Shown here in pieces: positions 15,507-51,242 of a stretch of DNA of 64,000 nt. The position numbers and the translations under genes were made by a program. Position 1 is the stretch's first letter; the number at the start of each line of letters is the position of its first letter. This DNA comes from Xanthobacteraceae bacterium (GTDB lineage: Bacteria > Pseudomonadota > Alphaproteobacteria > Rhizobiales > Xanthobacteraceae), in assembly GCA_035532335.1 (NCBI GenBank), contig DATKRE010000001.1:3555-67554 (forward strand), given 5' to 3'. A model generated the notes under the pieces. It was not told where the DNA came from. It saw only the letters and a program-made list of their open reading frames with translations, and ran no database searches.

Positions 15507-15514
15507 ATCAAATT
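15507..15514. repeat. left copy of the 8-bp target-site duplication ATCAAATT
   Basis: An identical octamer directly abuts both ends of the element (15507-15514 and 18082-18089). Confidence 0.85.
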
Positions 15515-15538
15515 CACAATTATATCGTTGACAACACA
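15515..15538 (+). repeat. left terminal inverted repeat CACAATTATATCGTTGACAACACA
   Basis: It matches the reverse complement of 18058-18081 at 23 of 24 positions (G/T mismatch at 15530). Confidence 0.85.
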
Positions 15539-15556
15539 AGCCACAAGGGCTAGTAT
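15528..15556 (+). promoter_or_regulatory. sigma70-like promoter of the transposase (TTGACA-17 nt-TAGTAT); the -35 lies inside the IRL
   Basis: TTGACA is at 15528-15533 and TAGTAT at 15551-15556, with a 17-nt spacer, 26 nt upstream of the ATG at 15582. Confidence 0.6.
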
Positions 15557-15581
15557 CTGGCCATAATCAAGGGTTTTGGCC

Positions 15582-16523
15582 ATGGATACCTTTTCAGCCC
15601 CGCACTTCCGTACCGACGATGCCGCGCGGACCTATCTCGAACGGCTCCGCTGGCCCGACGGAACGGTCTGCCCGCATTGCGGCGTAATCGGCCATTCATA
15701 CAAAACGCCTACCGTTGGCCGTTACCGCTGCGCTGAGAAGGAATGCCGCAAGGATTTCACCGTGACGGTGAACACTCCTATGGAGCGGTCGCATATCGCC
15801 CTGCACAAGTGGCTACAGGCTTTCCACTTGATGTGTTCCAGCAAGAAGGGGGTGAGCGCGCACCAGCTCCACCGCACTCTCGCCATCACCTACCGTTCGG
15901 CGTGGTTCATGGCACACCGCATTCGCGAGTGCATGCGGACTGGCGGCCTTGCGCCGCTGGGCGGCGCAGGCAAGATCGTAGAGGCCGATGAAACCTATTA
16001 TGGCAAGACGGAAACAGCCCGCGTGCCGGCATATCGGATGGGTCGTCCCTACAAACAAGGCGCAGGGTCACGCGGCCCGCGCGACAAGCGGTCTATTGTC
16101 GCTTTGGTTGAGCGCGGCGGGAACGTCCGTTCGTTCCATGTGCCGATTGCGGATAAGAAAACGGTGACTAGCATCGTGCGCGATAACATCGCCCACGAAA
16201 GCCGCTTGCACACAGATGAAAGTCGCCTCTATTGGGGTTCCGACGAACACTTTGCTTCGCATGAAAGCGTGAAGCACAGCGCGGGTGAGTATGTACGCGA
16301 CGACGTGCATACCAACAGCGCCGAGGGCTACTTCTCAATCTTCAAGCGCGGGATGCGCGGCATCTACCAGCATTGCGGCGAGAAGCATCTGCATCGGTAT
16401 CTCGCTGAGTACGATTTCAGATATAACCACCGATCTGCACTCGGATATAACGACGGGGAACGGGCGGCGCTTGCAATCAAAAGTGCAGACGGCAAGCGTC
16501 TCACGTATCGAAATGCTCACTAA
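15582..16523 (+). CDS. IS1595 family transposase
   Basis: Has the N-terminal zinc-finger pattern (CPHCG...RYRCAEKECRKDFTVT) and a DDE-type core (VEADETYYG, HTDESRLY, NSAEGYFSIFKRGMRG). The ATG at 15582 is preferred over the TTG at 15576 used in the ORF track. Confidence 0.9.
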   Translation: MDTFSAPHFRTDDAARTYLERLRWPDGTVCPHCGVIGHSYKTPTVGRYRCAEKECRKDFTVTVNTPMERSHIALHKWLQAFHLMCSSKKGVSAHQLHRTLAITYRSAWFMAHRIRECMRTGGLAPLGGAGKIVEADETYYGKTETARVPAYRMGRPYKQGAGSRGPRDKRSIVALVERGGNVRSFHVPIADKKTVTSIVRDNIAHESRLHTDESRLYWGSDEHFASHESVKHSAGEYVRDDVHTNSAEGYFSIFKRGMRGIYQHCGEKHLHRYLAEYDFRYNHRSALGYNDGERAALAIKSADGKRLTYRNAH

Positions 16524-16685
16524 ACCTGAGTTTGAATTTCGAGCCGCGCGTTTTCTGCGCTGGCGAAAGAAGCAATCTAAGCGGAAGCCTTAGCCTTGGG
16601 CTTTCGCTTTGGTTGCTTGCGCGGAATGTCTTTCATCGGCTTCGGCGGCGTAGAAAACGCCCCCCGCAAGGCGACATCGAAACGC

Positions 16686-17363
16686 TTATTTGCCACCCGA
16701 TCGCTGTACTTTTCGCTGTTTTTTGTCATCAGGGCCATCGTCGTTAGGGCAGAAAAACTCACGCAAGCTTGGTACGTGACTCAATGCCCGCTGCACCACG
16801 AACGGCGGAATATTGTACAGCTCCGCTTGTTCGGATACGCCGTTCTTTTTTGTACCATTTTTTAAGTATTCGAGACGGCGCTTCATTGGGAACAAAAATT
16901 CCGCCGCCGCAATTTCACCAAGCGTATCGGATGTCGCTGGGTGCCCCAGGTTCAGATCGACGCTGCCCGGCGATTCTCGCAAGATCATGTTCTGCACAAG
17001 CTCAACGATATCGCGAGTTACCAAGGATTCCTGCCATAGATGAATCTGCAACAACTCCTTCGTCTTGTAGAAACGAAGGTACGGCGCCGGCAGACCCTTC
17101 GCGTAATAGATCGCGCACTCTTTGATGGTGTTTTTCTCGCCCTTCGGGACGTAAAAGGATCGGAACTTGGCCTTGGTCCACTCGATCCGCAACCCGCGGT
17201 GATAGATGGGAAACCCATGTCGTCCCATCATGATCAAATGAAGATCTTCCGCCGATCGCGGCAGCCCTTCACCTTCGGCCGCGCCGCAACTTTTATCGTG
17301 ATCGACCGCCACCTCGCGCGTTTTTTGCGCACAAAAGCGGATGAGATCGTTATCGATAAGCAC
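16686..17363 (-). CDS. hypothetical cargo protein with a possible degenerate ImmA/IrrE (M78)-like C-terminal region lacking HExxH
   Basis: A 225-aa ORF with a GTG start at 17363 preceded by GGGAG. The tail EIAAAEFLFPMKRR...GVSEQAELYNIPPFVVQRAL resembles the end of the M78/DUF955 domain, but no HExxH was found. The family assignment is weak. Confidence 0.45.
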   Translation of the reverse strand: MLIDNDLIRFCAQKTREVAVDHDKSCGAAEGEGLPRSAEDLHLIMMGRHGFPIYHRGLRIEWTKAKFRSFYVPKGEKNTIKECAIYYAKGLPAPYLRFYKTKELLQIHLWQESLVTRDIVELVQNMILRESPGSVDLNLGHPATSDTLGEIAAAEFLFPMKRRLEYLKNGTKKNGVSEQAELYNIPPFVVQRALSHVPSLREFFCPNDDGPDDKKQRKVQRSGGK

Positions 17364-17371
17364 GATACATC

Positions 17372-17412
17372 TCCCAAACGCAAAAGCCTCTGAGACGCGC
17401 CGTCTCAGAGGC
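17372..17412 (-). terminator. rho-independent terminator between the two cargo ORFs
   Basis: A perfect 12-bp stem GCCTCTGAGACG / CGTCTCAGAGGC (17386-17397 and 17401-17412) with a 3-nt loop. On the minus strand it is followed by TTTTGCGTTTGGG. Confidence 0.75.
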
Positions 17413-17446
17413 TCCGATTAGGAGACGTGCGGGATTCCGATTTCTT

Positions 17447-17659
17447 TCAACGCCCTTGATTCGAGCGACGTGAATCGCCCAAAGGGGGCAAATCCGAATA
17501 TTCTCTACGCTCGATTGCGTCAAGCGCCTCGTTGATGGACGCGCAAACGCTCTCATCGGTCTCTTCGGCCAAGGGACCAAAGCAAAATTTAATGTCGAGC
17601 GCGCCCGCCGCTTGGAGAGCGCGGTATTTCTCTTTCAAAGTCTCTGCCTGCGTGCTCAT
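17447..17659 (-). CDS. hypothetical small acidic cargo protein (70 aa)
   Basis: The ORF is 17447..17677. The internal ATG at 17659 has a strong GGAGGA Shine-Dalgarno 5 nt upstream, whereas the first ATG has none. No family was recognised. Confidence 0.5.
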   Translation of the reverse strand: MSTQAETLKEKYRALQAAGALDIKFCFGPLAEETDESVCASINEALDAIERREYSDLPPLGDSRRSNQGR

Positions 17660-18057
17660 GGCGTCCTCCGGGAACATCCAGTCCCGCCGTTCAAACGATA
17701 TAATACTGTACTACGGCCAACAGATGACACAACGTCCGAGGCACGGAAAAGTTACCCGGAAGGTAACTTTGGCCGCCCAAGTGACATTTCGGGCGACTTT
17801 TCCCCCAGTTTCGGCGGCCGTGACCGCAGATTCCCCCGTAGATGGAGGGTTTATAGGGCGAGTCAAGTTAAATCTTCGGTAATGCGTCCCGTCGACGTAG
17901 CCGAATCGAGGACCGGGAAGCGGAATTGATGCATTTAAAATGCATAATCCGCCGATCCGGTCTTTTCCCTCTGGACGCGCCAGCGCGGCGATCTGACTTC
18001 ATCTCGGCCTAGACTTCCGCACGGACAGACCACAATACATCCACAATACATAGTGTG

Positions 18058-18081
18058 TGTGTTGTAAACGATATAATTGTG
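18058..18081 (-). repeat. right terminal inverted repeat (complement reads CACAATTATATCGTTTACAACACA)
   Basis: See the IRL feature. It is directly followed by the ATCAAATT target-site duplication. Confidence 0.85.
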
Positions 18082-18089
18082 ATCAAATT
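18082..18089. repeat. right copy of the 8-bp target-site duplication ATCAAATT
   Basis: Identical to 15507-15514. Confidence 0.85.
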
Positions 18090-18173: not shown

Positions 18174-18198
18174 GGAACTTCCGGGTTTGCCTCGCGTT
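18174..18198 (+). promoter_or_regulatory. EcfG-type promoter motif GGAAC-N16-CGTT facing the poly-HAMP kinase
   Basis: The plus strand reads gccGGAACttccgggtttgcctcgCGTTtgggg. The motif is 224 nt upstream of the ATG at 18422. Confidence 0.5.
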
Positions 18199-18421
18199 TG
18201 GGGTTGAAAGCGCGGGTGAGGCCCGAATTTGAGGGGGAGTCTACGTTCGCATAGCAACTCGTGGCGGTGGGGCGCGATCCCGCCGCGCGCGTTGCGCTGC
18301 GATGTGGTGATCCCTCCGCGCCCGGCTCTTTCGCAGCCTCAAAGGCCGGATAGCTGCGCTTCATCGGCCAATAATCGCCTCCCGGACAAGGTCCACCCCA
18401 TAGGGGGTTTCGGAGAGTTTC

Positions 18422-21400
18422 ATGCAGACCCCTGAAGACGTGATTGGCTCCTCGAACGCCAACGGTTCCGCTATGGCCGAGAATATTCCCCAGACGACGG
18501 CGCGCGGGGTCGACGGGGATGTCCAAGGTTTGGACGTTCAAGGTTTGGACGCTCAAGGTTTGGCGGAATTGCTGAACGCGCTCCAGACCATGCGGGTCGG
18601 TGATTTTTCCGTCCGCATGGCCCGCGACCGAGTCGGGATCATTGGCAAGATTGCCGATACTTTCAACGAAATCGTCGCCACCAACCAGCGGATGGCAAAG
18701 CAGCTCGAACGCGTTGGTCAGGTTGTCGGGCGCGACGGACGGACACGCCAACGCGTGCGCTTCGGTCTGTCCGACGGTGCCTGGGGTGAGATGGAAACCT
18801 CGGTCAATTCGCTGATCGACGATTTGCTATGGCCGACGACGGAAGTGACGCGCGCCGTCGCTGCGGTGGCGCAAGGCGATCTCTTGCAAACAGTGCAGCT
18901 CGACGTTGACGGCCGGCCGCTGAAGGGTGAGTTCCTGCGTTCCGCCGAAATCGTCAATACGATGATCAAACAGCTCAACGTGTTCACCTCCGAGGTGACC
19001 CGCGTCGCGCGCGAGGTCGGCACCGAAGGCAAACTCGGCGGCCAGGCCCAAGTCGGCGGTGTCACCGGCGTGTGGAAAGACCTCACGGAGAGCGTCAATT
19101 CGATGGCGTCGAACTTGACCGCGCAAGTGCGCAACATCGCCGATGTGACGATAGCGGTCGCCAACGGCGACTTGTCTAAGAAAATCACCGTCGACGTGCG
19201 CGGCGAAATTCTGCAATTGAAGGAAGCCATCAACACGATGGTCGATCAATTGCGCTCCTTCGCCTCCGAAGTGACGCGCGTCGCCCGCGAAGTCGGCACC
19301 GACGGCAAGCTCGGCGGCCAGGCGATCGTGCCCGGCGTCGCCGGCACGTGGAAGGACTTGACCGACTCGGTCAACGCCATGTGCGGCAATCTTACCGACC
19401 AGGTCCGCAACATCGCGCACGTGACGACGGCGGTTGCGCGCGGTGACTTGTCGCGCAAAATTACGGTCGACGTGCGCGGCGAAATTCTCAAGCTGAAAGA
19501 CACCATCAACACGATGGTGGACCAGCTCAACGGTTTCGCGTCGGAAGTGACGCGCGTCGCCCGCGAGGTCGGCACCGAAGGCAAGCTCGGCGGTCAGGCG
19601 CAGGTGCCCGGCGTCGCCGGCACCTGGAAGGATTTGACCGACAGCGTCAACTTCATGGCCGGCAACTTGACGGCGCAGGTCCGCAATATCGCCGACGTGG
19701 CGACCGCGATCGCCGGCGGCGATTTGTCGAAGAAAATTACGGTGAATGTCAGCGGCGAGATCTTGCAGTTGAAAGAGACCATCAACACGATGGTCGATCA
19801 GCTCAATGCGTTCGCCGGCGAAGTCACCCGCGTTGCGCGCGAGGTCGGCACCGACGGCCGCCTTGGCGGCCAGGCCAACGTGCGCGGCGTTGCCGGCACC
19901 TGGAAGGACTTGACGGATTCGGTGAATTCGATGGCGTCGAACCTGACCGCGCAGGTGCGCAACATCGCTGAAGTGTCGACCGCTATCGCCAGCGGCGACT
20001 TGTCGAAAAAGATCACGGTCGACGTGCGCGGGGAAATTGCCGAGCTGAAAGACACCATCAACACGATGGTGGACCAGCTCAATGCCTTTGCCGGGGAGGT
20101 GACGCGCGTGGCGCGCGAGGTCGGCACCGAAGGCAAGCTCGGCGGTCAGGCCATGGTGCGCGGCGTTGCCGGCACCTGGAAGGATTTGACCGACTCGGTC
20201 AACTCGATGGCGTCGAACCTCACCGGTCAGGTGCGCAACATCGCCGAAGTGGCGACCGCGGTGGCCCGCGGCGACCTTTCGCGCAAGATCACCGTGGACG
20301 TGCGGGGCGAAATTCTCGAACTGAAAGACACGCTCAACACGATGGTCGATCAGCTCAACGCCTTTGCCGCCGAGGTGACGCGCGTCGCGCGCGAAGTCGG
20401 CACCGAAGGCAAGCTCGGTGGTCAAGCCAACGTGCCGGGCGTCGGCGGCACCTGGAAGGATTTGACCGACTCGGTAAATTCGATGGCCTCGAACCTCACC
20501 GGGCAGGTGCGCAACATCGCCGAGGTGGCGACGGCAATCGCCGGTGGCGACCTTTCGCGCAAGATCACCGTCGACGTACGCGGCGAGATTTTGCAGTTGA
20601 AGGAAACCCTCAACACCATGGTCGACCAGCTCAACCGCTTCGCCGGCGAGGTGACGCGCGTTGCCCGCGAGGTCGGCACCGAAGGTCGCCTCGGCGGTCA
20701 GGCGAACGTGCCAGGTGTCGCCGGCACCTGGAAGGACTTGACGGATTCGGTCAACTCGATGGCCGGCAACCTCACCGCGCAAGTGCGCAACATCGCCGAA
20801 GTGACCACGGCGGTGGCCCGCGGCGACCTTTCGCGCAAGATCACCGTCGACGTTAAAGGCGAAATTCTCGAGCTGAAAAACACCATCAATACGATGGCGG
20901 ACCAGCTCAACGCATTCGCCTCCGAAGTGACGCGCGTCGCCCGCGAAGTCGGAACTGAAGGCAAGCTCGGCGGCCAGGCGCAGGTGCTCGGTGTCGCCGG
21001 CACCTGGAAGGACCTGACCGACAACGTCAACTTCATGGCTTCGAACTTGACCGCGCAGGTGCGCAACATTGCCGAAGTGGCGACAGCAATCGCCGGCGGC
21101 GACCTGTCGAAGAAGATCACGGTCGACGTGCGCGGCGAGATGCTGTTCCTCAAAGACACGCTCAACACGATGGTTGAGCAATTGCGTTCGTTCGCCGCCG
21201 AAGTGACGCGTGTCGCCCGCGAGGTCGGCGCCGACGGTCGTCTCGGCGGTCAGGCCGTGGTTCCCGGCGTCGCCGGCACCTGGAAAGACTTGACCGACAA
21301 CGTCAACTTGCTCGCCGCAAACCTGACGACGCAAGTCCGTAACATCGCCGAGGTGACGACGGCGGTGGCGCGCGGCGACCTGTCGCGCAAGATTACGGTC

Positions 21401-24400
21401 GACGTTAAGGGCGAAATCCTGGAGCTGAAGAACACCATCAACACCATGGTGGACCAGCTCAATGGTTTCGCGTCGGAAGTTACCCGCGTTGCGCGTGAAG
21501 TCGGCACCGAGGGACTGCTCGGCGGCCAGGCGCAAGTGCCCGGCGTCGCCGGTACCTGGAAGGACTTGACCGATACGGTGAACGTCATGGCCGCCAACCT
21601 GACCGAGCAGGTGCGCGGTATTGTGAAGGTCGTGACTGCGGTCGCCAACGGCGACCTGAAGCAAAACCTTGCCGTGAAATCGAAAGGCGAGGTCGCGGCG
21701 CTTGCCGAAACCATCAACAGTATGACGGATACACTTGCGACCTTTGCCGACCAGGTGACCACGGTGGCGCGCGAGGTCGGCGTCGAAGGTCGTCTTGGCG
21801 GCCAGGCGAATGTGCCCGGCGCTGCCGGCACTTGGAAGGACTTGACCGGCAACGTCAATCTGCTTGCCGCCAATCTGACCACGCAGGTGCGCGCCATCGC
21901 CGAAGTGGCGACGGCGGTGACCAAGGGTGACCTGACGCGATCGATTCAAGTCGAAGCGCGCGGCGAAGTGGCCGAGCTCAAGGACAACATCAATACGATG
22001 ATCGACAACTTGCGGCTGACCACCGACCGCAACACCGAGCAGGATTGGCTGAAGACGAACCTCGCAAAATTCACCAACATGCTGCAAGGCCAGCGTGATC
22101 TGACGGCCGTCGGCCGCTTGCTGCTCTCCGAGCTGGCTCCTCTGGTCAACGCTCACCAGGGCGTTATCTATCAGATGGAAGGCGACGAGCGGCAGAGTAG
22201 TCTCAATCTGCTGTCGGCCTACGCCGACGACAATACGAACGGCCATCCGGATAGCTTCCGTCTTGGTCAAGGCCTGATTGGACAGTGCGCGCTCGACAAA
22301 CGGCGCATGTTGATTACCGACATGCCGGAAGGCGCTGTTCCCATTAGCTCGGCACTGTTCAGGGAATCGCCCCGCAACAATATCGTGTTGCCGGTCCTGT
22401 TCGAGAATCAGGTTAAGGCGGTGATCGAACTTGCGTCGATGCACGAATTCACGACGCTGCAAACCATATTCCTCGAGCAGCTTACGACCTCGATCGGTAT
22501 CGTGCTCAATTCGATCGAGGCGACAATGCAGACCGAGGGCCTGCTCAAGCAATCGCAGCAGTTAGCCGGCGAATTGCAGGCGCAACAGAAAGAATTGCAA
22601 AAAACCAACGAGCAACTTGAGCAGAAGGCGCAACAACTTGCCGAGCGCAACGTCGAAGTCGAGCGCAAGAATCAGGAAATCGAGCAGGCCCGCCGCGCGG
22701 TGGAGGAGAAGGCGACCGAACTGGCGCTAACCTCCAAGTACAAATCGGAATTCCTGGCCAACATGTCGCACGAGTTGCGCACGCCGCTCAACTCGATCCT
22801 GATCCTCGGCCAGCAGCTCACCGACAATCCCGAGGGCAATCTGAGCGGCAAGCAGGTCGAGTTCGCCAGAACGATCCATGGTGCCGGCACCGATTTGCTC
22901 AATCTCATCAGCGATATCTTGGATTTGTCTAAGATCGAGTCCGGTACCGTGACCGTCGATGCCGAGGAGGTCTTCTTCTCGAACTTGCTCGATATGATGG
23001 CGCGGCCGTTCCGTCATGAAGCGGAAACCCGTCAACTTTCATTCGAGGTTCATTCCGATCAAAATCTCGGGCGGACCATCACCACGGACGCCAAACGCTT
23101 GCAGCAGGTGCTCAAGAATCTGCTGTCGAATGCTTTCAAGTTTACTGCTCAGGGCGGCGTTCGCCTTAACGTCGCCGTATCGCTCGGCGGCTGGAGCGCG
23201 GAGCATCCGGTGCTCAGCCAGGCATCCGCCGTCGTGGCGTTCGAGGTGACGGATACCGGCATCGGTATTCCGCTCGAAAAACAGAAGATTATCTTCGAAG
23301 CATTCCAGCAAGCCGACGCGTCGACCAGCCGGAAATATGGCGGCACCGGTCTCGGTCTCGCCATCAGCCGCGAACTGGCGAGCCTGCTCGGAGGCGAGAT
23401 TCATCTGCGTAGCTCGCCCGGGTCCGGATCGACGTTCACGCTCTATCTGCCGATCAAATATGTCGGCCCGAGCGCGACAACGCACGTCGCCACGGCCGTG
23501 TCGATGCCCTCGCCACAATTGTTGGGACTTCACATTGCCGCCGACCGCACGATCGAGCCGATCCCCGATGACCGGATGGACATTCAGGCCGGCGACAGCA
23601 TTCTTCTCATCGTTGAGGACGATCCGCATTACGCCCGCATTTTGATCGACCTCGCGCGCGACAAGGGTTTCAAGGCGCTATTGGCGATGCGCGGCGATGA
23701 TGCACTCAATCTTGCCAAGCAGTATCAGCCAACTGCGGTTTCGCTCGATGTATTCCTGCCGGACATGCTTGGTTGGAATGTGCTCAGTCAGCTCAAGCAG
23801 AATCCCCTAACCCGGCATATTCCGGTGCAGATTGTGTCGCTCGACGAAGATCGCGAGCATGGTCTGGCGCGCGGTGCGTTTGCCTTCGTCAACAAACCGA
23901 CGACGCGCGAAGACATTGACGTGGCGCTGTCCCGTATCAAGGAATTTACCAAGCCACGTCGCAAGCGCCTGTTGATCGTCGAGGACAATTCCGTCGAGCG
24001 GATGAGCATCCACGCTTTGCTCGACCATGACGATATCGATATCGTGAACGCGGCCACGGGCGGCGAGGCATTGAGTACGCTGCACGACAAATCATGCGAT
24101 TGCGTGGTTCTCGACCTTCGTCTTCCAGATATGTCGGGCTTTGAGGTGCTGGAGCGCATGCGCGCGGATAGTTCGCTTGCCGACATTCCGGTCGTCGTAT
24201 TCACGGGCCGGGAATTGTCTGCCGCGGAAGATGCCCAGCTTCATACCATGGCGCGCAGCATCGTGGTGAAAGGGGTCGAATCGCCCGAGCGGTTGCTTAA
24301 CGAGACCGCGCTGTTCCTGCATCGCGTCATCACCGATTTGCCGGCCGAGAAACAGCATATGCTGGAACGGCTCAATAGCTCCGACGAGGATCTCGTCGGG

Positions 24401-24766
24401 CGTACCGTACTTCTGGTCGACGACGATCCGCGTAACATCTTTGCCCTGTCGAGCGCGCTGGAACGCCGTGGCATGAACGTGCTCACTGCGACGACGGGGG
24501 CCGAGGCGATTACGCTCATCGAGGAAACGCCGGCGCTCGCTATCGTGCTGATGGACATCATGATGCCGGAGATGGACGGCTATCAAACGATCGAGAAAAT
24601 CCGTCAAGACCAGGCCCATCGCCGCTTGCCGATCATTGCCTTGACCGCCAAGGCGATGAAGGGCGATCGCGAAAAATGCCTACAGGCCGGGGCATCGGAC
24701 TATCTCGCCAAGCCTGTTAACACCGAGCAACTCCTGTCCGCGCTGCGGATGTGGTTGCATCGCTAG
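18422..24766 (+). CDS. giant cytoplasmic hybrid sensor histidine kinase: poly-HAMP array, GAF, coiled coil, HisKA, HATPase, three receiver domains (2114 aa)
   Basis: No TM segment is visible. About 25 HAMP-like modules are present. A GAF-like region runs from about 22090 to 22520. The H-box is [15 protein letters not shown], with G-boxes (DTGIGI, GGTGLGL). Three REC domains carry the phospho-Asp contexts [18 protein letters not shown] and [15 protein letters not shown] lies 8 nt before the ATG. Confidence 0.9.
18521..18565 (+). repeat. three tandem 15-bp units (GTCCAAGGTTTGGAC-like) encoding [15 protein letters not shown]
   Basis: The units are gtccaaggtttggac, gttcaaggtttggac and gctcaaggtttggcg, read directly from the sequence. 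Confidence 0.8.
18983..22018 (+). repeat. 11 in-frame tandem copies of a 276-bp (92-aa) unit, each unit being two concatenated HAMP-like modules
   Basis: Each unit begins F(A/T)[11 protein letters not shown] and contains [20 protein letters not shown](R/K)KITVDV and NTMVDQL. I counted 11 units by hand. Copies differ mostly at synonymous sites. Confidence 0.9.
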
Positions 24767-24777
24767 CCGCGGCCGTC

Positions 24778-26631
24778 ATGACAGAAAAAGTCAACGTTCT
24801 GTTGGTCGACGATCAGCCTGACAAGCTGCTCGCTTACGAGGTGATCCTCCAGGACCTTGGAGAAAATCTCGTCAAAACATCATCTGCGCGAGATGCCTTG
24901 CAATTTCTCCTTAAGAACGACGTCGCCGTCGTCCTGGTCGACGTGTGTATGCCGGTGCTTGACGGTTTCCAGTTTGCCGCCATGCTCCGCGAGCATCCAC
25001 GGTTCCGGAAAACAGCGATCATTTTCATTTCGGCTATCCTTCTCACCGACGTAGATCGCCTGCGCGGTTATGAGATGGGAGCGGCCGATTATGTGCCGGT
25101 GCCGGTCGTTCCCGAAGTATTGCGTGCGAAGGTCAGGGTATTTGTCGAGCTGTTCCGGAAGACGCGCGAGCTTGAAGAATTAAACTCTCAACTCGAACGG
25201 CACGTGACGGAGCGCACGGTGGAACTTGAATCTTCGAACCAGCGGCTGCTTCAGAGCGAGCAGGGCCGCAGCCTTGCGCTGGCGGCCGGTCAGATGGGCT
25301 CGTGGGACTGGGACCTGGTCAATGACGACTGGAAGTGGGACGAAGGTCAATGCCGCATCTTCGGAGTCGATCACGCCACATTCAGACCGAGCCCGCAAAA
25401 TGTCGGCACCATGGTCGAGCCGGAGGACATGCGCCGGCTCACGGAGATGGTGTCCGATTTCGGGCGTGGCGACAGCCAAGGCTACCAGACTGAATTCCGC
25501 GTCGTGCGTCTGGACGGCACGGTGCGGTGGTGCTTCGGCACGGCGGCTCCGACTGTCGACGCCTCCGGCAAGGTGGTGCGTATTTCCGGCGTCACCATCG
25601 ACATCACCGATCGCAAGGAGACCGAAGAGCGCCAAGCGTTTCTGTCACGCGAGGTCGATCATCGCGCCCGCAACGCGCTCGCCGTTATCCAATCGATCAT
25701 AAGGCTTACTCGCGCAAAAAGCGTTGACGACTACGTGCTGGCGATCGAGGGGCGCATCAAAGCGATGGCGCGCGCGCACACGCTGCTTTCCGACTCTCGC
25801 TGGCACGGCGCCGATCTCGGGGCGCTCGTCGCGGAAGAATTGGCGCCGTACCGGGCCGGTGACAAAATCGAGATCTGCGGGCCTGATATCTCGCTGCAAC
25901 CAGCTACCGCTCAAGGTCTCGCGCTTGCGCTGCATGAGCTCGCCACCAACGCGGCAAAACATGGCGCGCTGTCGTTGGCCACCGGCAAAGTGAGGCTCGA
26001 TTGGCGGTTACAGGCGGACACTCTGAACTTGCATTGGGTGGAGAATGGCGGCCCGCACATTGAGTCGCCTTCCGCGAGCAGCTTCGGCTTGAAAGTCATC
26101 GTTGCCAGCGTGGAACAACAACTTGGTGGCAAAGTAGAGTTTGACTGGGGTTCCAAAGGTCTGCAATGCGTGTTGTCGATACCGCGTAGCGTATTGTTGA
26201 AAACACGGGTCGCAGGCGAGCGAGTCAACGGTGAAGCAAATGGCGTCGCGGCCGGTTTGAATCCGGCAGGCAAGCCGCGCGTGCTCCTGGTCGAGGACGA
26301 AGCGTTGGTCGCCATGATGATACAGGAGAGCCTTACCGAATTCGGCTTCCACGTCATCGGTCCGGTCTGCACCGTATCCGAGGCGGAGGCGGTTGCCCGG
26401 GACGATCGACCCGATGTCGCCGTCCTTGATATCAATCTCGGCGACGGGATGATCTATTCGGTCGCCGAGATACTGGCGGTGCGCGGAGTGCCATTCGTCT
26501 TCGTGACCGGTTACGATGCCGAGAGCGTCGACAGCCGGTTCAGCGAAATCCCGATCCTGCAGAAGCCCATCGACAGGGAAATATTGCAGAGAATCTTCGC
26601 TCAGCACGCGGAGCGCTATGCCGCTCATTGA
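24778..26631 (+). CDS. REC - PAS - HWE/HisKA_2 histidine kinase - REC hybrid protein
   Basis: The N-terminal REC has VLLVDDQPD...VLVDVCMPVLDG and a PAS region (SWDWDLVNDDWKWDEGQCRIFGV). The HisKA_2 H-box is REVDHRARNALAVIQS and the HWE signature is LHWVENGGP. The C-terminal REC has VLLVEDEALV...VLDINLGDG. The gene starts 12 nt after the upstream stop. Confidence 0.9.
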   Translation: MTEKVNVLLVDDQPDKLLAYEVILQDLGENLVKTSSARDALQFLLKNDVAVVLVDVCMPVLDGFQFAAMLREHPRFRKTAIIFISAILLTDVDRLRGYEMGAADYVPVPVVPEVLRAKVRVFVELFRKTRELEELNSQLERHVTERTVELESSNQRLLQSEQGRSLALAAGQMGSWDWDLVNDDWKWDEGQCRIFGVDHATFRPSPQNVGTMVEPEDMRRLTEMVSDFGRGDSQGYQTEFRVVRLDGTVRWCFGTAAPTVDASGKVVRISGVTIDITDRKETEERQAFLSREVDHRARNALAVIQSIIRLTRAKSVDDYVLAIEGRIKAMARAHTLLSDSRWHGADLGALVAEELAPYRAGDKIEICGPDISLQPATAQGLALALHELATNAAKHGALSLATGKVRLDWRLQADTLNLHWVENGGPHIESPSASSFGLKVIVASVEQQLGGKVEFDWGSKGLQCVLSIPRSVLLKTRVAGERVNGEANGVAAGLNPAGKPRVLLVEDEALVAMMIQESLTEFGFHVIGPVCTVSEAEAVARDDRPDVAVLDINLGDGMIYSVAEILAVRGVPFVFVTGYDAESVDSRFSEIPILQKPIDREILQRIFAQHAERYAAH

Positions 26632-26687: not shown

Positions 26688-28199
26688 TCAGTTGGCCGGA
26701 GGCAGCAGTGTTCGCGCCATCGCGTCGCGCCAACCACGGCAACGCTGGTCGCGGATGTTTTCGGGCATCGTTGGCTGGAAACTGCGATCAAGACGCCAGA
26801 TCGTGGCGAAGGCATCCGGCGCCGGATACACGCCGGCTTGCCAGCCGGCCAGCAGGGCGACGCCGAGCGCGGTCGTCTCGCGGATAGTGGGGCGATCGAC
26901 CTGCACGTCCAGAACGTCAGCGAGAAACTGCATGGTCCAGTCGCTTGCCGACATGCCACCGTCAACGCGGATGATAGGCTTCATCGTTCCCGGCTGCCGT
27001 GTTTCGCCGGCATCGGCATACATGGCCGCGAGCAGATCGCAAGTCTGATACCCGACGCTTTCGAGCACGGCGCGCGCTAACTCCTTCCGCGTCGTCCCGC
27101 GCGTCAAGCCGGTGATGGTGCCGCGGGCGCCGCTATTCCAGTAGGGCGCACCGAGGCCGACAAATGCCGGTACGAAATAGACGGGTTGCTCAGTGTCGGC
27201 TTGCGCAGCGAGTTCACCCGCTTGTGTCGACGAGGCGATAATCCCAAGTGCGTCGCGCAGCCATTGAACCGCCGCGCCAGCCACGAAGATCGACCCCTCC
27301 AGAGCGTAATGGCGGGTGCCATTCCATTGGTAGGCGATTGTCGTCAGCAGACGATGCCGCGAGCGGACGGCGGTTGATCCAGTGTTGAGCAAGACGAAAC
27401 CACCGGTTCCGTAGGTGGCCTTGACCATGCCCGGCTCCAGGCAGGCTTGGCCGATGAGCGCGGCTTGCTGGTCGCCGGCGACTGCACGAATGGCGATCTC
27501 ATTACCGAGATGCTCGGCCGCAGCAACGCCAAACTCGCCGGCGGTATCTCGCACCTGCGGCAGTAGTGAGGCCGCCACCTTGAACAGCCGCAGCAATTCC
27601 TCGTCCCAGCAACCGGTCCGGATATTGAACAGGAGCGTACGCGAGGCGTTGGTGGCATCGGTCGCGTGTACCGCGCCCAGCGTCAGGCGCCACAGGAGGT
27701 AAGTGTCGACGGTGCCGAACGCCAACTCGCCTTTCTCAGCGCGCGCACGCGCACCCGGAACATTATCGAGTATCCAGCAGATTTTGGTTGCCGAGAAATA
27801 CGGGTCGATCAAGAGCCCGGTGCGCTCGGTGATCATCTCTTGATAACCGTCGGCCACCATACGCGCGCAAAGATCGGCGGTTCGGCGATCCTGCCAAACA
27901 ATCGCATTGTAGATCGGCTCGCCCGTCTCGCGATTCCAGATGAGCGTGGTCTCGCGTTGATTGGCGATGCCGATGGCAGCGATATCGGGCGGACGCAGCG
28001 CGGCACTTTGCAACGCGTCGCGCATGGTCGCCAGCGTGGTTTCCCAGATATCGCTAGGATCGTGCTCGATCCAGCCGGGATGCGGGTAGATTTGTTTGAA
28101 CTCCCGCTGTGCGACCGAGAGCGGAGCGCCATCCGGCCCGAACAGGATGGTACGCGTTGAGGTGGTGCCCTGATCGATGGCGAGGACGTATCGCATCAA
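26688..28199 (-). CDS. glpK: glycerol kinase
   Basis: Contains [20 protein letters not shown]... and is 503 aa, with FGGY kinase motifs throughout. Confidence 0.95.
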
Positions 28200-44043: not shown

Positions 44044-44517
44044 TCAGTGGAATTCGGGAATGGAACTTCCGGTGCGGCGGGGAGTGTCGGGCGGCTGCTC
44101 GTTCAGTACCAGCCAATAGAGTCCCAGTTGGACCACCGCCTGCGCGAATTCGTTGAAATCGACCGGCTTGCGGACGTAGCTGTTGGCGCCGAGGCTATAA
44201 CCCTGCAAGCGGTCTTTATCCTCCACCGAGGTCGTCAGGATGACCACGGGCAGCAAACGGGTGCGCTCGTCGCTGCGGATGCGACGCAGCACCTCATGAC
44301 CGTCGATTTTCGGCAGCTTCAGATCCAGCAATATAAGCTGCGGCAGCTCATTGCGGTTGCCGTCGGCGCCGGTGCCAAGAAGATAGTCGATGGCCTGGAC
44401 CCCGTCGCGTGCCACGGCCACACGATTGCCGATGTTGGCCTTCTTGAGCGCCCGCAGCGTCAAGGCTTCGTCTTTCTGATTGTCCTCCACGAGAAGGATG
44501 GCCGGCTCTTGCGTCAT
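44044..44517 (-). CDS. single-domain response regulator (CheY-like), last gene of the Che-like cluster
   Basis: REC domain with ILLVEDNQKDE...LILLDLKLPKIDG...YVRKP. ATGA overlap with the upstream kinase gene. Confidence 0.9.
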   Translation of the reverse strand: MTQEPAILLVEDNQKDEALTLRALKKANIGNRVAVARDGVQAIDYLLGTGADGNRNELPQLILLDLKLPKIDGHEVLRRIRSDERTRLLPVVILTTSVEDKDRLQGYSLGANSYVRKPVDFNEFAQAVVQLGLYWLVLNEQPPDTPRRTGSSIPEFH

Positions 44518-46553
44518 TGCGTCCCCCAGATTAATGCCGCGCTTGCGGGTCCGATTGCATGCGTAGCGGGCTCGGCCGCCAAGCGCTGATCGTCCCCAAG
44601 CGTAAAGAAGAAAGTGGCGCCGCTGTCGACGGCGGCTTCCGCCCAGATGCGGCCGCCGTGCCGGCGGATCACCCGCCGAACTGTCGCCAGTCCGATGCCG
44701 GTACCTTCGAACTCGCTCTTCGTGTGTAGCCGCTGGAACATGCCGAATAGCTTGCCGGCATAAGCCATGTCGAAGCCTGCGCCATTGTCGCGAACGAAGA
44801 AGGTGCGGCCGTCATTATCGGCCATGCCGACTTCGATATGGGCTCGCTTCCGGTGTCCGGTATATTTCCAGGCGTTGCCAAGCAGGTTCTCGAACGCGAT
44901 GGTCAATAGCCGGGCATCGCCTTCGGCGGTCAGGCCATCCGCTACGGTGAAGTCAACGTCGCGGCCCGGCGTGGCGCGCGCAAGTTCCGCGGAGACCTTG
45001 GATGCGATTTCGCTTAAGTTGACGTTGGCGCGCTCAAATTCGACGCGAGTGACCTGCGCCAGCGCCAGCATGTCGTCGATCAGTTGCGACATTTGCTGGG
45101 CGGATTCCCGCACGTAAGCCAGGTACTGCTTGCCGTCGTCGTCGAGTTTGTCCGCGTAGTCCTCCAGGAGCGCCAGTCCAAACCCGTCGATGCTGCGCAA
45201 CGGTGCGCGCAAATCATGGGCGACGGAATGGCTGAAAGACTCAAGTTCTTCATTCTTGGCCTCGAGTTCGGCGACGAGCTTGGCGCGTTCTTCCGCCATC
45301 TCGCGCGCCGTGCGCGCCTCGATTGCCTCCAGTTCGGCGCGCAAAAGCTGTTCGCGGATACGGCGGGTCTCGTCCTCGAATTGCTTGCGCCGGATCTGGG
45401 CCAGCACGCGCGCGCGCACCAGATCGAAATCGCTTGATTTGGCGATGTAATCGTCAGCGCCGGCGGTAAGTCCTCGAATCATCGCCGCGCGATCCTCGAC
45501 CGCGGTCAACATGAGCACCGGAATGTCGCGGATGTCGGGTGCCAGTTTGATGCGCCGGCAGGTTTCCCGGCCGCCCATGCCAGGCATCATCAGATCGAGC
45601 AGAATGCAATCGACCGGCTGGACCGCAAGCAATTGCAACGCTTCCTCGCCTGAGCGTGCCAACACCAGCTCGTAGCCATCCGAGCGCAATGCATCGGCAA
45701 GCTGCTGCAGGTAGGTTTCGCTGTCATCGACCGCGAGAATCTTTTTCGGCGCCAGCAGACTTGTGGCGCCGTGTGCGTCCATCTGAGCTTCCAACCGGCC
45801 GCCGGCGCTTCGCAACACGGCTTTCAGCCGGGCGATGACGAGCGCGACATCTTCGTCTTTACGAACGAATGCATCGGCCCCCGCATCAAGCGCGTGCATC
45901 TCGGCGCCGCGATCTTCCGACGCGGTGAGAAGAAGGCAGGGCAGGCCGCGCAACGCCGCGTCCAGCCTGATCCTTCGGATGACGGTGGCGCCGTCGATGC
46001 CCGGTAATTGACCGTCAACGACGATGGCGGTGGGTCGCTGATCGGAGGCGAGCCGCAATCCGTCTTCGCCGTTGTCGCTCACGATCACGCGGTAGGAGGC
46101 CGCCTCGAGCGCCGCTTTCAAAGCCTCGCGAAACGTCAGGCTGTCGTCGATGACCAGCACGCTCTCCACGCCAGCGGGTGCGGCCGACACATGCAGCCGG
46201 GCGAGTTCGCGCGCGCGCGCGACAATGTAGTTGGGATCGTAGGGCTTGCCGACATACTCATCCGCTCCGGTGGAGAGGCCGCGCACGCGGTCGCGCACTT
46301 CCGCTTCAGTCGACAACAGCATGACGGCAGTATCGTTGGCGGACGGCATCGCGCGGATATCCCTGAGCAGTTCAATTCCGTCGCCATCCGGCAACAGAAT
46401 ATCGAGGATCACCAGCGCGAAATGCTGCTCGGCGAGCTTGCGCCGCGCTTCCTCCAAAGTCGCGCAAGCCACGGCTGGAAGCGCCGCCGCGTCGAGGATC
46501 TCGGTCAAATTCATGCGGACGGTCAGGCTGTCATCGACCACGAGAACGCTCAT
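44514..46553 (-). CDS. hybrid histidine kinase with three N-terminal receiver domains, coiled coil, HisKA and HATPase
   Basis: REC1 has VLVVDDSLTV...ILDILLPDGDG. REC2 has VLVIDDSLTF...VVDGQLPGIDG. REC3 has ILAVDDSETY...LLDLMMPGMGG. The H-box is FSHSVAHDLRAPLRS and the G-box is GTGIGLATV. Confidence 0.9.
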   Translation of the reverse strand: MSVLVVDDSLTVRMNLTEILDAAALPAVACATLEEARRKLAEQHFALVILDILLPDGDGIELLRDIRAMPSANDTAVMLLSTEAEVRDRVRGLSTGADEYVGKPYDPNYIVARARELARLHVSAAPAGVESVLVIDDSLTFREALKAALEAASYRVIVSDNGEDGLRLASDQRPTAIVVDGQLPGIDGATVIRRIRLDAALRGLPCLLLTASEDRGAEMHALDAGADAFVRKDEDVALVIARLKAVLRSAGGRLEAQMDAHGATSLLAPKKILAVDDSETYLQQLADALRSDGYELVLARSGEEALQLLAVQPVDCILLDLMMPGMGGRETCRRIKLAPDIRDIPVLMLTAVEDRAAMIRGLTAGADDYIAKSSDFDLVRARVLAQIRRKQFEDETRRIREQLLRAELEAIEARTAREMAEERAKLVAELEAKNEELESFSHSVAHDLRAPLRSIDGFGLALLEDYADKLDDDGKQYLAYVRESAQQMSQLIDDMLALAQVTRVEFERANVNLSEIASKVSAELARATPGRDVDFTVADGLTAEGDARLLTIAFENLLGNAWKYTGHRKRAHIEVGMADNDGRTFFVRDNGAGFDMAYAGKLFGMFQRLHTKSEFEGTGIGLATVRRVIRRHGGRIWAEAAVDSGATFFFTLGDDQRLAAEPATHAIGPASAALIWGTQ

Positions 46554-47629
46554 GCGCGCATCTCCATCGGGGCGTATTGCAGAGTACCCAGACGCGTTCC
46601 GATCTCACCAAGGCGCAAAACCTCCGTGGCCGCGCCAAGGTTGACCGCCTCGCGCGGCATGCCATAGACGACGGAGGTTGTCTCGTCTTGCGCGATGGTA
46701 AATCCGCCGGCTTGGCGGATCTTCAGGAGTCCGAGCGCGCCGTCACGGCCCATTCCGGTGAGTAAGCAGGCAATCGCCTGGGCGCCGTATTCGGCGGCGA
46801 CCGACTCGAACAACACGTCGACAGAAGGCCGGCAAGAATGCCGTTCTGCGTCTTCGGTCAGCCGCAGACGGTGATCGCGGACGACCAAATGGTGAGTCCC
46901 CGGTGCCACAACGACCTGACCGGCGGCTTCGGCAATCGGGATTCCATCGCGTGCATGGCGCACCGGACGATTGGTCTGGCCGTCGAGCCAATCGGCAAAT
47001 GCCGCCCCAAACGGTTCGCTGATATGCAGCACCAGCAAAATCGGCAGACGAAACTCCGCCGGTAGCGCGCGCAAAACCTGAAGGACCGCACTTGGTCCGC
47101 CGGTCGAGGCGCCGATGGCGACCATTCGATAGGCGGGTTGCGCGAGCGCTGCCGCGCGCGAGGGTGTTTTGGAGGTTGGTTCTTGCCCGGTCAGTGCCGC
47201 CAAACGGGCGCGCGGATGAGTGATGACGCGGATCCTCGCGATCCGCTTCACCGCCGTAATGAATTGCTGCTCCCACGTGCCTCCGGTATCGCGGCCGGTG
47301 GGCTTTTCCAGCACGTCGACCGCGCCGGCGGCGAGCGCCTCGTAAATTTTGAATAATTCGCCACGATTGATCGAAGCCGACACGATGAGGATCGGAGTCG
47401 GAAAATGCGCCATGATGTATTCGGTGGCGGCAAGGCCGCTCATGAGCGGCATCACCATGTCCATGGTGATCACGTCCGGCCGCGTCCTTGTGCACAACTC
47501 GATCGCGCGCTTGCCGTCCTCGGCCTCGCCGACGACCTCGAAATCCGGGTGATTGCGGAGAATCTCGACAAGGCTGCCGCGAACTGTTGCGGAATCATCG
47601 GCGACGAGGACGCGAAGTTTTTTCGTCAC
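46550..47629 (-). CDS. cheB: chemotaxis response regulator protein-glutamate methylesterase
   Basis: REC (RVLVADDSATVRG...VITMDMVMPLMSG) plus a CheB catalytic domain (VAIGASTGGP). The GTG at 47629 overlaps the cheA stop (GTGA). Confidence 0.9.
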   Translation of the reverse strand: MTKKLRVLVADDSATVRGSLVEILRNHPDFEVVGEAEDGKRAIELCTRTRPDVITMDMVMPLMSGLAATEYIMAHFPTPILIVSASINRGELFKIYEALAAGAVDVLEKPTGRDTGGTWEQQFITAVKRIARIRVITHPRARLAALTGQEPTSKTPSRAAALAQPAYRMVAIGASTGGPSAVLQVLRALPAEFRLPILLVLHISEPFGAAFADWLDGQTNRPVRHARDGIPIAEAAGQVVVAPGTHHLVVRDHRLRLTEDAERHSCRPSVDVLFESVAAEYGAQAIACLLTGMGRDGALGLLKIRQAGGFTIAQDETTSVVYGMPREAVNLGAATEVLRLGEIGTRLGTLQYAPMEMRA

Positions 47630-49737: not shown

Positions 49738-49763
49738 GTGCTGCCTCGCCGGTGGTGCCTGCC

Positions 49764-51242
49764 TTAGGCCGCCATGTGCGGCGTAATGATGCGCAGGAGG
49801 TCTTTTGACAGCGACGCCATCTGCGAGACGGTCTGTAGGGTCTGCCCGGCACTGGTTTCGGTTTCCATCGAAGCCTGCGTCACATTGGCGACCGCGACGT
49901 TGACCTGCTCCACGGCGGTCGATTGCTGCTTGGTAGACAGCTCGATCTCGCGTGCCGCGTCCGTGGTGGTGGAGACCAAACTGACAATCTGCCTGAACGC
50001 CAAGGCCAGATCGCCGAACTGCCGCGAGCCGGCATCGACTGCTTTCGAGCCGGTCTCAGTCGCCATCACCGTGGTGTTCACCGCACTCCTGACGTCCTCG
50101 ATCAGCGCTCGCACCTCCTTGGTTGAGCCGCCGACCCGATCGGCAAGATTGCGAATTTCCTTGGCGACGACTGCGAACCTTTTGCCGGCTTCGCCGGCGC
50201 CCGCCGCTTCGATGGTCGCATTGATCGCGAGGATGTTGGTCTGTTCCGCAAGCTCGGAAACAATGTCGATCACCGCTCCGATTTCCTGCGATTTTTTTCC
50301 GAGTTCCAGCATGTGCGAAACGATCTGATCGACTTGCCCGCGAATACTGGAAATCGACTCGTGCGTCTGGTCGACCGTGCCGTGGCCGCTGCGGGCGGCG
50401 TTCGCGGTTTCTTCGACATTGTGGGCGTCGCGCTGCGCGCTTTCGGCGATTTGGCGCGATGTTGCCAGCAGCTCGCTGATCGTGGTGGAGATTTCAGCCA
50501 TCGCGGTGGCCTGCTCCTTGGCGCCGGATGCTTGCTGATTGGCGGCCGCTTGTAATTCGGTCGATGAGCTGCGGACCAGTCCGACGGCCGAACCGATCTG
50601 CTGCGAGAGTGATGACGCTATCAGCCAGCCGATGATGCAGACGGCGAGCGTGCCGCTAAGTCCGCCCCACAGGATGATATTCTGGGTCAAATCGGCGCTC
50701 GCGCGAGCCTCCTCGGTCCGCTGCTTGAGCACGTCGCGAGCCTCTTGGTCGGCCGCGGCTACGGCGGCGCGTATCTGATCCATATGCGTCTTGCCGGTAT
50801 TGGTCGTGATAAGCTTCGCGGCGGCATCAAATCCCTGCGCGCGGCGAAGATCGACGGCGGCCTTGAGCTCGTTCAGCTTGGTCTCGATGATCGGCGTAAT
50901 ACTCGCCAGACGCCGTTGCTGCTCGGCGCTGTCCGCCGTGAGCTTGCGCAAATCCGCCAGCGTTGCCGGCAAAGCGTTCAGTGCCGATTTGTAGGGATCC
51001 AGGTAACTTTCGTCGCCGGTGATGACGTAGCCGCGCTGTCCGGTCTCGGCGTCCTTCATCACCGAGAGCACGTCGGCAAGCTCCAGTCGAACCTGATGGC
51101 TATGCTCCACCAGCGCGTCGTTTTCGATCAACAAATTCGTGTTGCGATAGGAAACGACCGCTATCAGCAACAGCGTGAGCGCGGACAGGCCAAAGCCGAC
51201 GATCAAGCGGCGGCCGACGGTCCAATTGTTGAACAGACTCAT
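49764..51242 (-). CDS. methyl-accepting chemotaxis protein with periplasmic CHASE3 domain
   Basis: Two TM helices are present. The CHASE3 signature is [40 protein letters not shown]. The MCP signalling hairpin is [35 protein letters not shown]. Confidence 0.9.

Follow-up and report, generated by a model that had tools for sequence, protein, structure and literature searches.

Sequence analysis of an AskA-type hybrid histidine kinase with 25 HAMP domains, and of its partner kinase gene, in a Xanthobacteraceae bacterium

We analyzed 64,000 nucleotides of contig DATKRE010000001.1 from a Xanthobacteraceae bacterium (assembly GCA_035532335.1; this whole stretch is referred to as the window) and, within it, gene P0001, which encodes a soluble hybrid histidine kinase (Table 1). 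Judged by its sequence, the gene is a kinase-associated poly-HAMP hybrid kinase of the AskA/AskB type, an architecture that has already been described and partly crystallized. Its 25 HAMP domains lie in a single membrane-free chain, and a second kinase gene follows directly downstream. Three features go beyond the literature cited here: the HAMP rod evolves slowly and in a position-specific manner, the partner gene joins a conserved receiver (REC) domain to a swapped kinase core, and an EcfG-type promoter motif stands before an operon whose partner kinase is of the HWE class.

The kinase gene is one intact open reading frame (ORF) of 2114 codons, and its ATG and GGAGA Shine-Dalgarno sequence are kept in eight same-genus genomes. 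A sequence-only reading of this DNA had described a soluble hybrid kinase of this length, without a transmembrane helix and with about 25 HAMP modules (some three divergent ones in front), a GAF domain, a coiled coil, a HisKA/HATPase core and three receivers. That description stands on Pfam matches, on profiles made from the protein's own units, on an alignment to AskA and on a structure model. The highest Kyte-Doolittle mean over 19 residues is 1.55 and lies within REC3, so that no transmembrane helix is predicted. Pfam places HAMP on 11 stretches (E 1e-114) and HAMP_2 on 12, which answers the doubt whether the repeat is HAMP-like at all, and it finds GAF_2 at residues 1225–1362, HisKA at 1441–1508, HATPase_c at 1556–1678 and three Response_reg domains. 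The catalytic boxes of the kinase are all there (H-box with H1450, N, G1 and G2), and each of the three receivers keeps its acidic pair and phospho-acceptor Asp along with the Ser/Thr and the Lys.

Written in rows of 92 residues, the segment 188–1199 resolves into 11 units with zero indels, as had been counted before, and Tandem Repeats Finder reports a period of 276 nt with 10.7 copies (18971–21918). Each unit consists of a 46-residue non-canonical HAMP followed by a 46-residue canonical one. The two kinds alternate head to tail, and the proposal that the modules are interleaved has to be dropped. Profiles built from the two halves of the unit pick up three more HAMPs, canonical, non-canonical and canonical in that order (D-C-D), at residues ~55–187, ahead of the 11 C-D units, giving the order D-C-D-(C-D)x11. 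The total of 25 HAMPs follows from these D-C-D matches and from the residue-for-residue alignment to a 6-HAMP crystal construct of AskA. The pattern G-x-W-[KRQE]-x-[LM]-T has 11 matches, one per unit, and HAMP2 carries GAWGEM; the Trp of the non-canonical HAMP is present in 11/11 units, and the Gly of the capping motif is seen in all of them. The third HAMP contains a Pro kink (WPTTEV) and a 10-residue linker insertion and aligns without gaps to the third HAMP of AskA (9TRK). Residues ~50–95 align with AskA HAMP1 (D1), with only a 49-residue acidic tail upstream.

Residues 38–324 are matched, with an E-value of 5e-115 and nearly without gaps, by two PDB chains titled "histidine kinase, Gcn4p", 9TRK_A and 9TRJ_A. 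These chains come from Myxococcus xanthus AskA, as constructs of 6 and 4 HAMPs that appeared in August 2026 (PMC13446029). In that work, Coles et al. (Protein Sci 2026) define two poly-HAMP families, one of them "kinase-associated", whose arrays begin with an N-terminal D1 HAMP and continue with repeats of C/D2 HAMPs, a GAF domain, DHp/CA and at least one receiver (PMC13446029). The hallmarks of this family are a constant 92-residue spacing, a Gly at the junctions and a Trp that starts the non-canonical HAMPs' C-terminal helix, and AskA-like members have a Pro kink and a β-hairpin insertion in the third HAMP (PMC13446029). The kinase studied here shows the alternation of di-HAMPs with the 92-residue spacing, a D1 HAMP in first place without an input domain or transmembrane helix, the Trp and Gly positions, the kink and insertion of the third HAMP, and the GAF–DHp–CA–receiver module. 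Its 25 HAMPs fall within the known range, since AskA has 21 and AskB 31 (PMC13446029).

The novelty implied by the sequence-only reading does not survive this comparison: the family is named, AskA crystal structures are available (9TRJ and 9TRK), AlphaFold surveys cover more than 200 arrays (PMC13446029), and genetic data on AskA, AskB and AskC of M. xanthus have been published (Marcos-Torres et al., Nat Commun 2020, PMC7643160). As precedents it named only surveys and Aer2, and the latter is classed as a different, "multi-HAMP" type (PMC13446029). The Aer2 and HtrII receptors do resemble the present kinase in their concatenated HAMPs of alternating conformation, and the HAMP2-3 junction of Aer2 is packed similarly. 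However, their HAMPs are few, dissimilar and separated by PAS domains or linkers, their output is chemoreceptor signaling, and they form a separate class (PMC13446029). Pfam finds no PAS or methyl-accepting chemotaxis protein (MCP) signaling domain in the kinase, which scores 285.7 with the NCBIfam Aer2 model against a cut-off of 1200.

One reading of such an array would be that its length is an assembly artefact of collapsed or expanded repeats, or that the gene is a decaying pseudogene; we give this practically no weight. The source genome is in 260 contigs, and the k = 31 unitigs of public runs do not bridge the array, breaking inside it since its words are common to many soil organisms. 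Against this, the units lie 14–36% apart in DNA (64–86% identical, mean 75%, and 77% in amino acids), with a longest exact internal repeat of 40 nt. The frame is open over 2114 codons and bears the mark of purifying selection, inter-unit identity being 81% at first, 87% at second and 57% at third codon positions. The identical order of 11 units recurs in complete isolate genomes (Bradyrhizobium ganzhouense, L004) and in near-complete same-genus assemblies, and dozens of orthologues of 92–94% identity have lengths of 2100–2122 residues. Same-genus assemblies of 3–10 contigs align end to end over residues 1–1199 with 94–96% identity. In three soil metagenomes among the public runs, the depth of unique unitigs is equal inside the array and in its flanks. 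On these sequence data an artefact of assembly is effectively excluded. The divergence of the units and the presence of the same units in independent assemblies mark the array as genuine, and the units are old, diverged copies under purifying selection.

A search with one di-HAMP unit against 1.84 billion representative proteins returned 7311 clusters, with up to 18 units per protein. More than 600 relatives were found in the genome collection, among Alphaproteobacteria, Acidobacteriota, Cyanobacteria, Verrucomicrobiota, Bacteroidota, Planctomycetota, Myxococcota, Eremiobacterota and others. Unit i of the present array is matched best by unit i of its relatives across phyla. Same-position and other-position identities are 94% and 77% for Bradyrhizobium (where complete isolate genomes carry the same 11 units), 91% and 79% for Acidobacteriota, 86% and 78% for Nannocystis, and about 81% and 75% for Bacteroidota and Eremiobacterota. 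The 11 units are kept individually and in order in Alphaproteobacteria, Acidobacteriota, Myxococcota, Bacteroidota, Eremiobacterota and Cyanobacteria. That the units were recently amplified, or evolve in concert, was considered for this lineage and rejected, since the positional orthology and the divergence at third codon positions argue against it.

The array is the slowest-evolving segment of the kinase, changing less rapidly than the catalytic core. Compared with Terracidiphilus (Acidobacteriota), identity is 91% for the array, 77% for DHp/CA, 69% for the GAF domain, and 67%, 66% and 82% for REC1, REC2 and REC3; with Nostoc, the corresponding values are 82%, 64%, 55%, 49%, 46% and 67%. Repeat numbers were compared, as the sequence-only reading had suggested, across 80 loci chosen by similarity to the 25-HAMP query. 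In 35 of the 70 complete loci the profiles detect 23 HAMPs, as they do in this kinase, which corresponds to 25 in all; this mode may be biased, since the sample was picked with a query of 25 HAMPs. The gene is present in 20 of 24 same-genus genomes; the 16 other families examined from the order all lack it, and no flanking gene is conserved beside the orthologues. The high identity across phyla, the absence from the 16 families and the lack of conserved flanking genes point, at the sequence level, to horizontal spread of a cassette. In three same-genus genomes (G012:C5, G002:C8 and G023:C7) the orthologue is split into two or three frames, in one of them with an in-frame TGA, which may reflect either long-read sequencing error or real decay.

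The partner gene, P0272, starts with an ATG at 24778, 11 nt past the stop of the kinase gene. As the sequence-only reading had noted, no output gene lies nearby except this next kinase. Its kinase core matches the Pfam family HWE_HK (E 1.3e-23) and contains the motifs VDHRARN and HWVENGGP, corresponding to HRxxN and W-x-E. In the 75 related loci whose downstream gene runs in the same direction, a REC-first kinase follows directly in at least 58, and a CheR methyltransferase occupies that place in 11 (L022, L025, L034, L037, L041, L045, L049, L055, L058, L072 and L078). The core of the partner differs by lineage: the HWE type is confined to Alphaproteobacteria, many Acidobacteriota have HisKA_3, and other lineages have HisKA. 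Its N-terminal receiver (24778–25182, residues 1–135) is 66–70% identical between Alphaproteobacteria and Acidobacteriota and 40–58% in other phyla; identity is 40–87% in all but 2 of 61 loci, versus 27–31% to the kinase's own receivers. The DD pair, the acceptor Asp and the Ser/Thr are kept in 61/61 loci. By sequence, this receiver is clearly one orthologous module whose attached kinase core has been swapped between lineages, and it can be described as an atypical receiver subfamily co-inherited with the poly-HAMP kinases. The arrangement mirrors that of askB and askC, where askC lies directly downstream of askB and the third receiver of AskA (Rec3) binds the receiver of AskC (PMC7643160); that binding fits REC3 as the best conserved receiver of the present kinase. 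The partner resembles general-stress HWE/HisKA_2 kinases (the Pak kinases, PhyK and LovK) in its HRxxN H-box, W-x-E motif, PAS domain and C-terminal receiver, and differs from them in the extra N-terminal receiver co-inherited with the poly-HAMP kinase.

An exact match to the promoter consensus of the EcfG type, EcfG being the general stress sigma factor of Alphaproteobacteria, stands 224 nt before the start codon of the kinase gene. Both of its boxes are invariant in 9/9 same-genus upstream regions (eight other genomes and this one), in which the spacer and surroundings have diverged. Outside the genus, eight of ~18 alphaproteobacterial loci likewise have the exact motif in front of the gene, compared with 0 non-alphaproteobacterial loci. 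Genome-wide, it is ~1.7-fold commoner at the N16/N17 spacings than at other spacings, and the genome contains a PhyR gene adjoining a gene for an extracytoplasmic function (ECF) sigma factor. A second motif, kept as TG(A/C)GGGGGA in 9/9 same-genus leaders with varying flanks, lies within the ~220-nt leader, ~32 nt past the −10 box of the EcfG motif. This motif might act as an RNA element of the leader or as a site bound by a protein; Rfam gave no family match on the leader.

We favor, as a reasonably probable reading, a cytoplasmic stress sensor built on the poly-HAMP rod, which feeds a two-kinase relay tied to the PhyR–NepR–EcfG system. By homology to the AskA crystal structure, the array would form a parallel dimer in a continuous, supercoiled four-helix rod, with a length of roughly 60 nm as estimated from helix geometry. 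The alternating HAMP types would pass a state (axial helix rotation and/or bundle stability) from module to module, along the lines of the gearbox and dynamic-bundle models for HAMP signaling (PMC13446029). This state would travel from the rod through the GAF domain and a ~100-residue helix to DHp, and set kinase versus phosphatase activity. The rod, together with the GAF domain, is probably the sensing element, as there is no input domain and the N-terminal tail is acidic and variable; the strength of selection on the rod supports its role as the sensing surface. It most likely responds to a stress that the cytoplasm undergoes, either physical or caused by solutes, with osmotic or water stress as the best guess by analogy with the fungal group III kinases, which feed the high-osmolarity glycerol (HOG) osmostress pathway, with M. 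xanthus AskABC, which mediate glycerol responses, and with Streptomyces OsaA. Phosphate from H1450 would move to the receivers and from there, with REC3 as the probable link, on to the co-transcribed partner's N-terminal receiver; the partner's HWE kinase would act on the PhyR branch of the general stress response. HWE/HisKA_2 kinases are the established PhyR inputs (PMC5898713, PMC5964349). In view of the HWE partner and the EcfG-type promoter, the cassette is probably both a target and an input of PhyR–NepR–EcfG, and an EcfG promoter driving the operon would close a feedback loop. More tentatively, and as a possibility that we stop short of calling probable, the form with 25 HAMPs might be no casual expansion of repeats but a fixed-length, position-specific machine that travels within a two-gene cassette, whose partner would keep its cognate N-terminal receiver and have its core swapped to fit the network of each lineage. 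The rod would then be a new cytoplasmic input, with feedback, to the general stress response in Alphaproteobacteria, osmotic or water stress being its probable signal.

Several points weigh against the stress-sensor reading. Receiver-to-receiver phosphotransfer normally needs a histidine phosphotransfer (HPt) protein; the operon is without an HPt gene, and the genome has three small HPt-like ORFs at other places. The Lys position of the partner's N-terminal receiver is Val in 39 of 61 loci, this one included (Lys in 18), and that receiver is perhaps no classical phospho-switch. For a link between PhyR and the HWE partner, family precedent would be the only ground. A literature search found no experimental study of this protein or its alphaproteobacterial orthologues, and the stimulus is not known even for AskA or for the kinases of fungi. 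Ambruticin was not bound by AskA or AskB in purified form, and AskB is a DNA-binding protein, which points to possible roles beyond pure physical sensing. Another reading, which we judge unlikely, is that the GAF domain would be the real sensor, of a small cytoplasmic ligand, and the rod a scaffold or spacer, an oligomerizer, or a docking platform for proteins or DNA. The GAF fold is modeled confidently directly before the signaling helix and DHp, the usual place of a sensor, and is called a "sensory GAF domain" in PMC13446029. AskB binds promoter DNA, AskA, AskB and AskC bind each other, MrpC and FruA, and the extreme conservation of all units, including positions expected at the surface, would suit a binding platform equally well. 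Against this, few folded parts of the protein are as poorly conserved as the GAF domain (49–69% identity where the array has 80–91%), which, at 14–19% identity, is not close to any GAF domain with a known ligand. Fungal HAMP deletions and junction mutations alter signaling output, according to studies cited in PMC13446029. The N-terminal tail, here acidic and not basic, also speaks against this reading, as do the SpoIIID and HTH_6 "DNA-binding" matches of Pfam, which contain no individually significant stretch.

The other alternative concerns the output. The cassette may be an ordinary, horizontally spread two-kinase module without a tie to the general stress response, its EcfG motif serving expression only or being irrelevant and its HWE partner acting on some other regulator; this seems to us quite unlikely. 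It would account for a cassette found in many phyla without EcfG/PhyR and with HisKA or HisKA_3 partners, for the patchy distribution within the order, for an exact promoter motif in only 8 of ~18 alphaproteobacterial loci outside the genus, and for the lack of a conserved flanking gene. It sits less well with two promoter boxes that are invariant in 9/9 genus members while spacer and flanks have diverged, and with an HWE form of the partner restricted to Alphaproteobacteria, HWE/HisKA_2 being the established class of PhyR inputs. In addition, apart from PhyR itself, nothing in the genome matches a PhyR-family receiver model better than the C-terminal receiver of the partner, though its score is below the cut-off.

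The close known relatives of the kinase are M. xanthus AskA (MXAN_0712), AskB (MXAN_6735) and AskC, and Sorangium Amb07. Like AskA and AskB, it is soluble and has D1, then 92-residue pairs of non-canonical and canonical HAMPs, a GAF domain, DHp/CA and several receivers; it shares with AskA the junction Gly, the conserved Trp, and the Pro kink and linker insertion of the third HAMP, and, like askB-askC, it has a second REC-containing kinase gene directly downstream. It differs from both in the number of its HAMPs, and from the Myxococcus AskA/AskB paralogue pair in being present as one copy per genome; no second poly-HAMP paralogue was found in the source genome. Unlike in the Ask system, the partner combines an HWE core with PAS_3, and an EcfG-type promoter motif stands before the operon. 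There is no developmental programme here, in contrast to Myxococcus, and ambruticin is unlikely to be relevant. The units are diverged and position-specific, as opposed to the near-identical units of many bacterial arrays (PMC13446029).

This bacterial family has its fungal counterpart in the group III (Nik1/Os-1) kinases, whose arrays have been placed in the kinase-associated class (PMC13446029). The present kinase resembles Nik1, Os-1, TcsC and Bos1 in having 92-residue di-HAMPs of the same two types, in being a soluble hybrid kinase and in its link to osmotic stress. It differs from them in its bacterial origin, its 25 HAMPs, its GAF domain and its three receivers; set beside the fungal proteins by description only, it is homologous to this group and works in a like manner according to PMC13446029, without being a member. 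Fungal group III kinases have ~5–7 HAMPs and one receiver and signal through Ypd1 and Ssk1 to a mitogen-activated protein (MAP) kinase cascade. OsaA/OsaB of Streptomyces coelicolor (SCO5748/5749), with OsaC, provide a further likeness, OsaA being a soluble hybrid kinase of large size that has more than 10 HAMPs and is genetically tied to osmoadaptation and to the SigB stress sigma network (PMC9739842). There, however, the partner is a REC/coiled-coil response regulator and the stress sigma system is another one; this comparison, too, was made by description only.

Poly-HAMP kinases are widespread in soil bacteria, and major fungicides act on their relatives in fungi. The present locus does not bring a new kind of protein. 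What it offers is a clean setting: a single-copy gene, a fixed and very strongly constrained array of 25 HAMPs and a conserved cognate partner. The output should be readable in Alphaproteobacteria, for which EcfG-dependent reporters exist in relatives such as Bradyrhizobium, a genetically tractable genus that carries the same cassette. If the link to general stress is true, the cassette would be a new cytoplasmic input to that response and the first simple bacterial assay for the family.

Table 1. Positions, in window coordinates, of the features of the poly-HAMP kinase operon
Feature	Position	Strand	Basis
EcfG-type promoter motif GGAAC-N16-CGTT	18174–18198	+	Exact match; function inferred from consensus
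Second invariant leader motif TGAGGGGGA	18230–18238	+	Kept in same-genus leaders
Poly-HAMP hybrid histidine kinase gene (P0001), 2114 aa	18422–24766	+	ORF, ATG start
Acidic low-complexity N-terminal tail, residues 1–49 (8 D/E, 1 K/R)	18422–18568	+	Composition
HAMP1–3: diverged canonical (D1), non-canonical, canonical	18569–18982	+	AskA alignment, own-unit profiles
Eleven 92-aa di-HAMP units (22 HAMPs), residues 188–1199	18983–22018	+	Repeat and profile analysis
GAF domain, residues 1200–1365	22019–22516	+	Pfam GAF_2/GAF, AlphaFold2 model
Q/E-rich signaling helix (coiled coil) from GAF to DHp	22517–22741	+	AlphaFold2 model, sequence
DHp (HisKA, H1450) and catalytic ATPase domain	22742–23476	+	Pfam, motif residues
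Receiver 1	23594–23956	+	Pfam, catalytic residues
Receiver 2	23963–24346	+	Pfam, catalytic residues
Receiver 3, best conserved of the three receivers	24389–24763	+	Pfam, residues, segment identities
Partner gene P0272, 617 aa: REC, PAS_3, HWE histidine kinase, REC	24778–26631	+	Pfam

The AlphaFold2 model of the GAF domain has a predicted local distance difference test score (pLDDT) of 88.8, and it continues from the GAF domain into DHp as one unbroken helix of ~100 residues (model residues 146–245). Foldseek returned only generic GAF folds for it, at 14–19% identity, which bears out the fold but gave no clue to a ligand, and a search of the PDB with the GAF sequence gave no match. The matches of Pfam SpoIIID, HTH_6, GatB and Laminin on the array are taken as noise summed over the repeats, no stretch being individually significant. 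The same spurious SpoIIID and HTH_6 overlaps occur on AskA and AskB, where Marcos-Torres et al. took them as partial DNA-binding domains (PMC7643160). The N-terminal tail is the least conserved segment of the kinase, with at most 60% identity over short aligned stretches only, and its variation probably accounts for much of the difference in length among orthologues (2100–2122 residues). Within it, a 15-nt microsatellite, CAAGGTTTGGACGCT, is repeated 2.7 times at 18524–18563 and encodes VQGLD repeats.

Upstream of the operon, an IS1595-family element (15507–18089, with a transposase ORF at 15576–16523 and cargo) ends 85 nt before the −35 box, so that the promoter is undamaged; it sits between the kinase operon and a divergent pentose-phosphate operon. 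A simple scan detected no terminator after the partner gene. Convergent to the operon lies a glycerol kinase gene, GlpK (26688–28199, reverse strand), with 680.8 bits against an equivalog cut-off of 590.35. A link of glpK to the glycerol responses of the Ask and HOG systems was considered and rejected: the gene is not conserved next to any orthologue, and the adjacency is probably a coincidence for that reason. About 20 kb downstream, at ~44100–49800 on the reverse strand, an 809-residue ORF with an HPt domain and a 696-residue ORF with kinase and receiver matches indicate, at the level of sequence, a chemotaxis-like or phosphorelay cluster.

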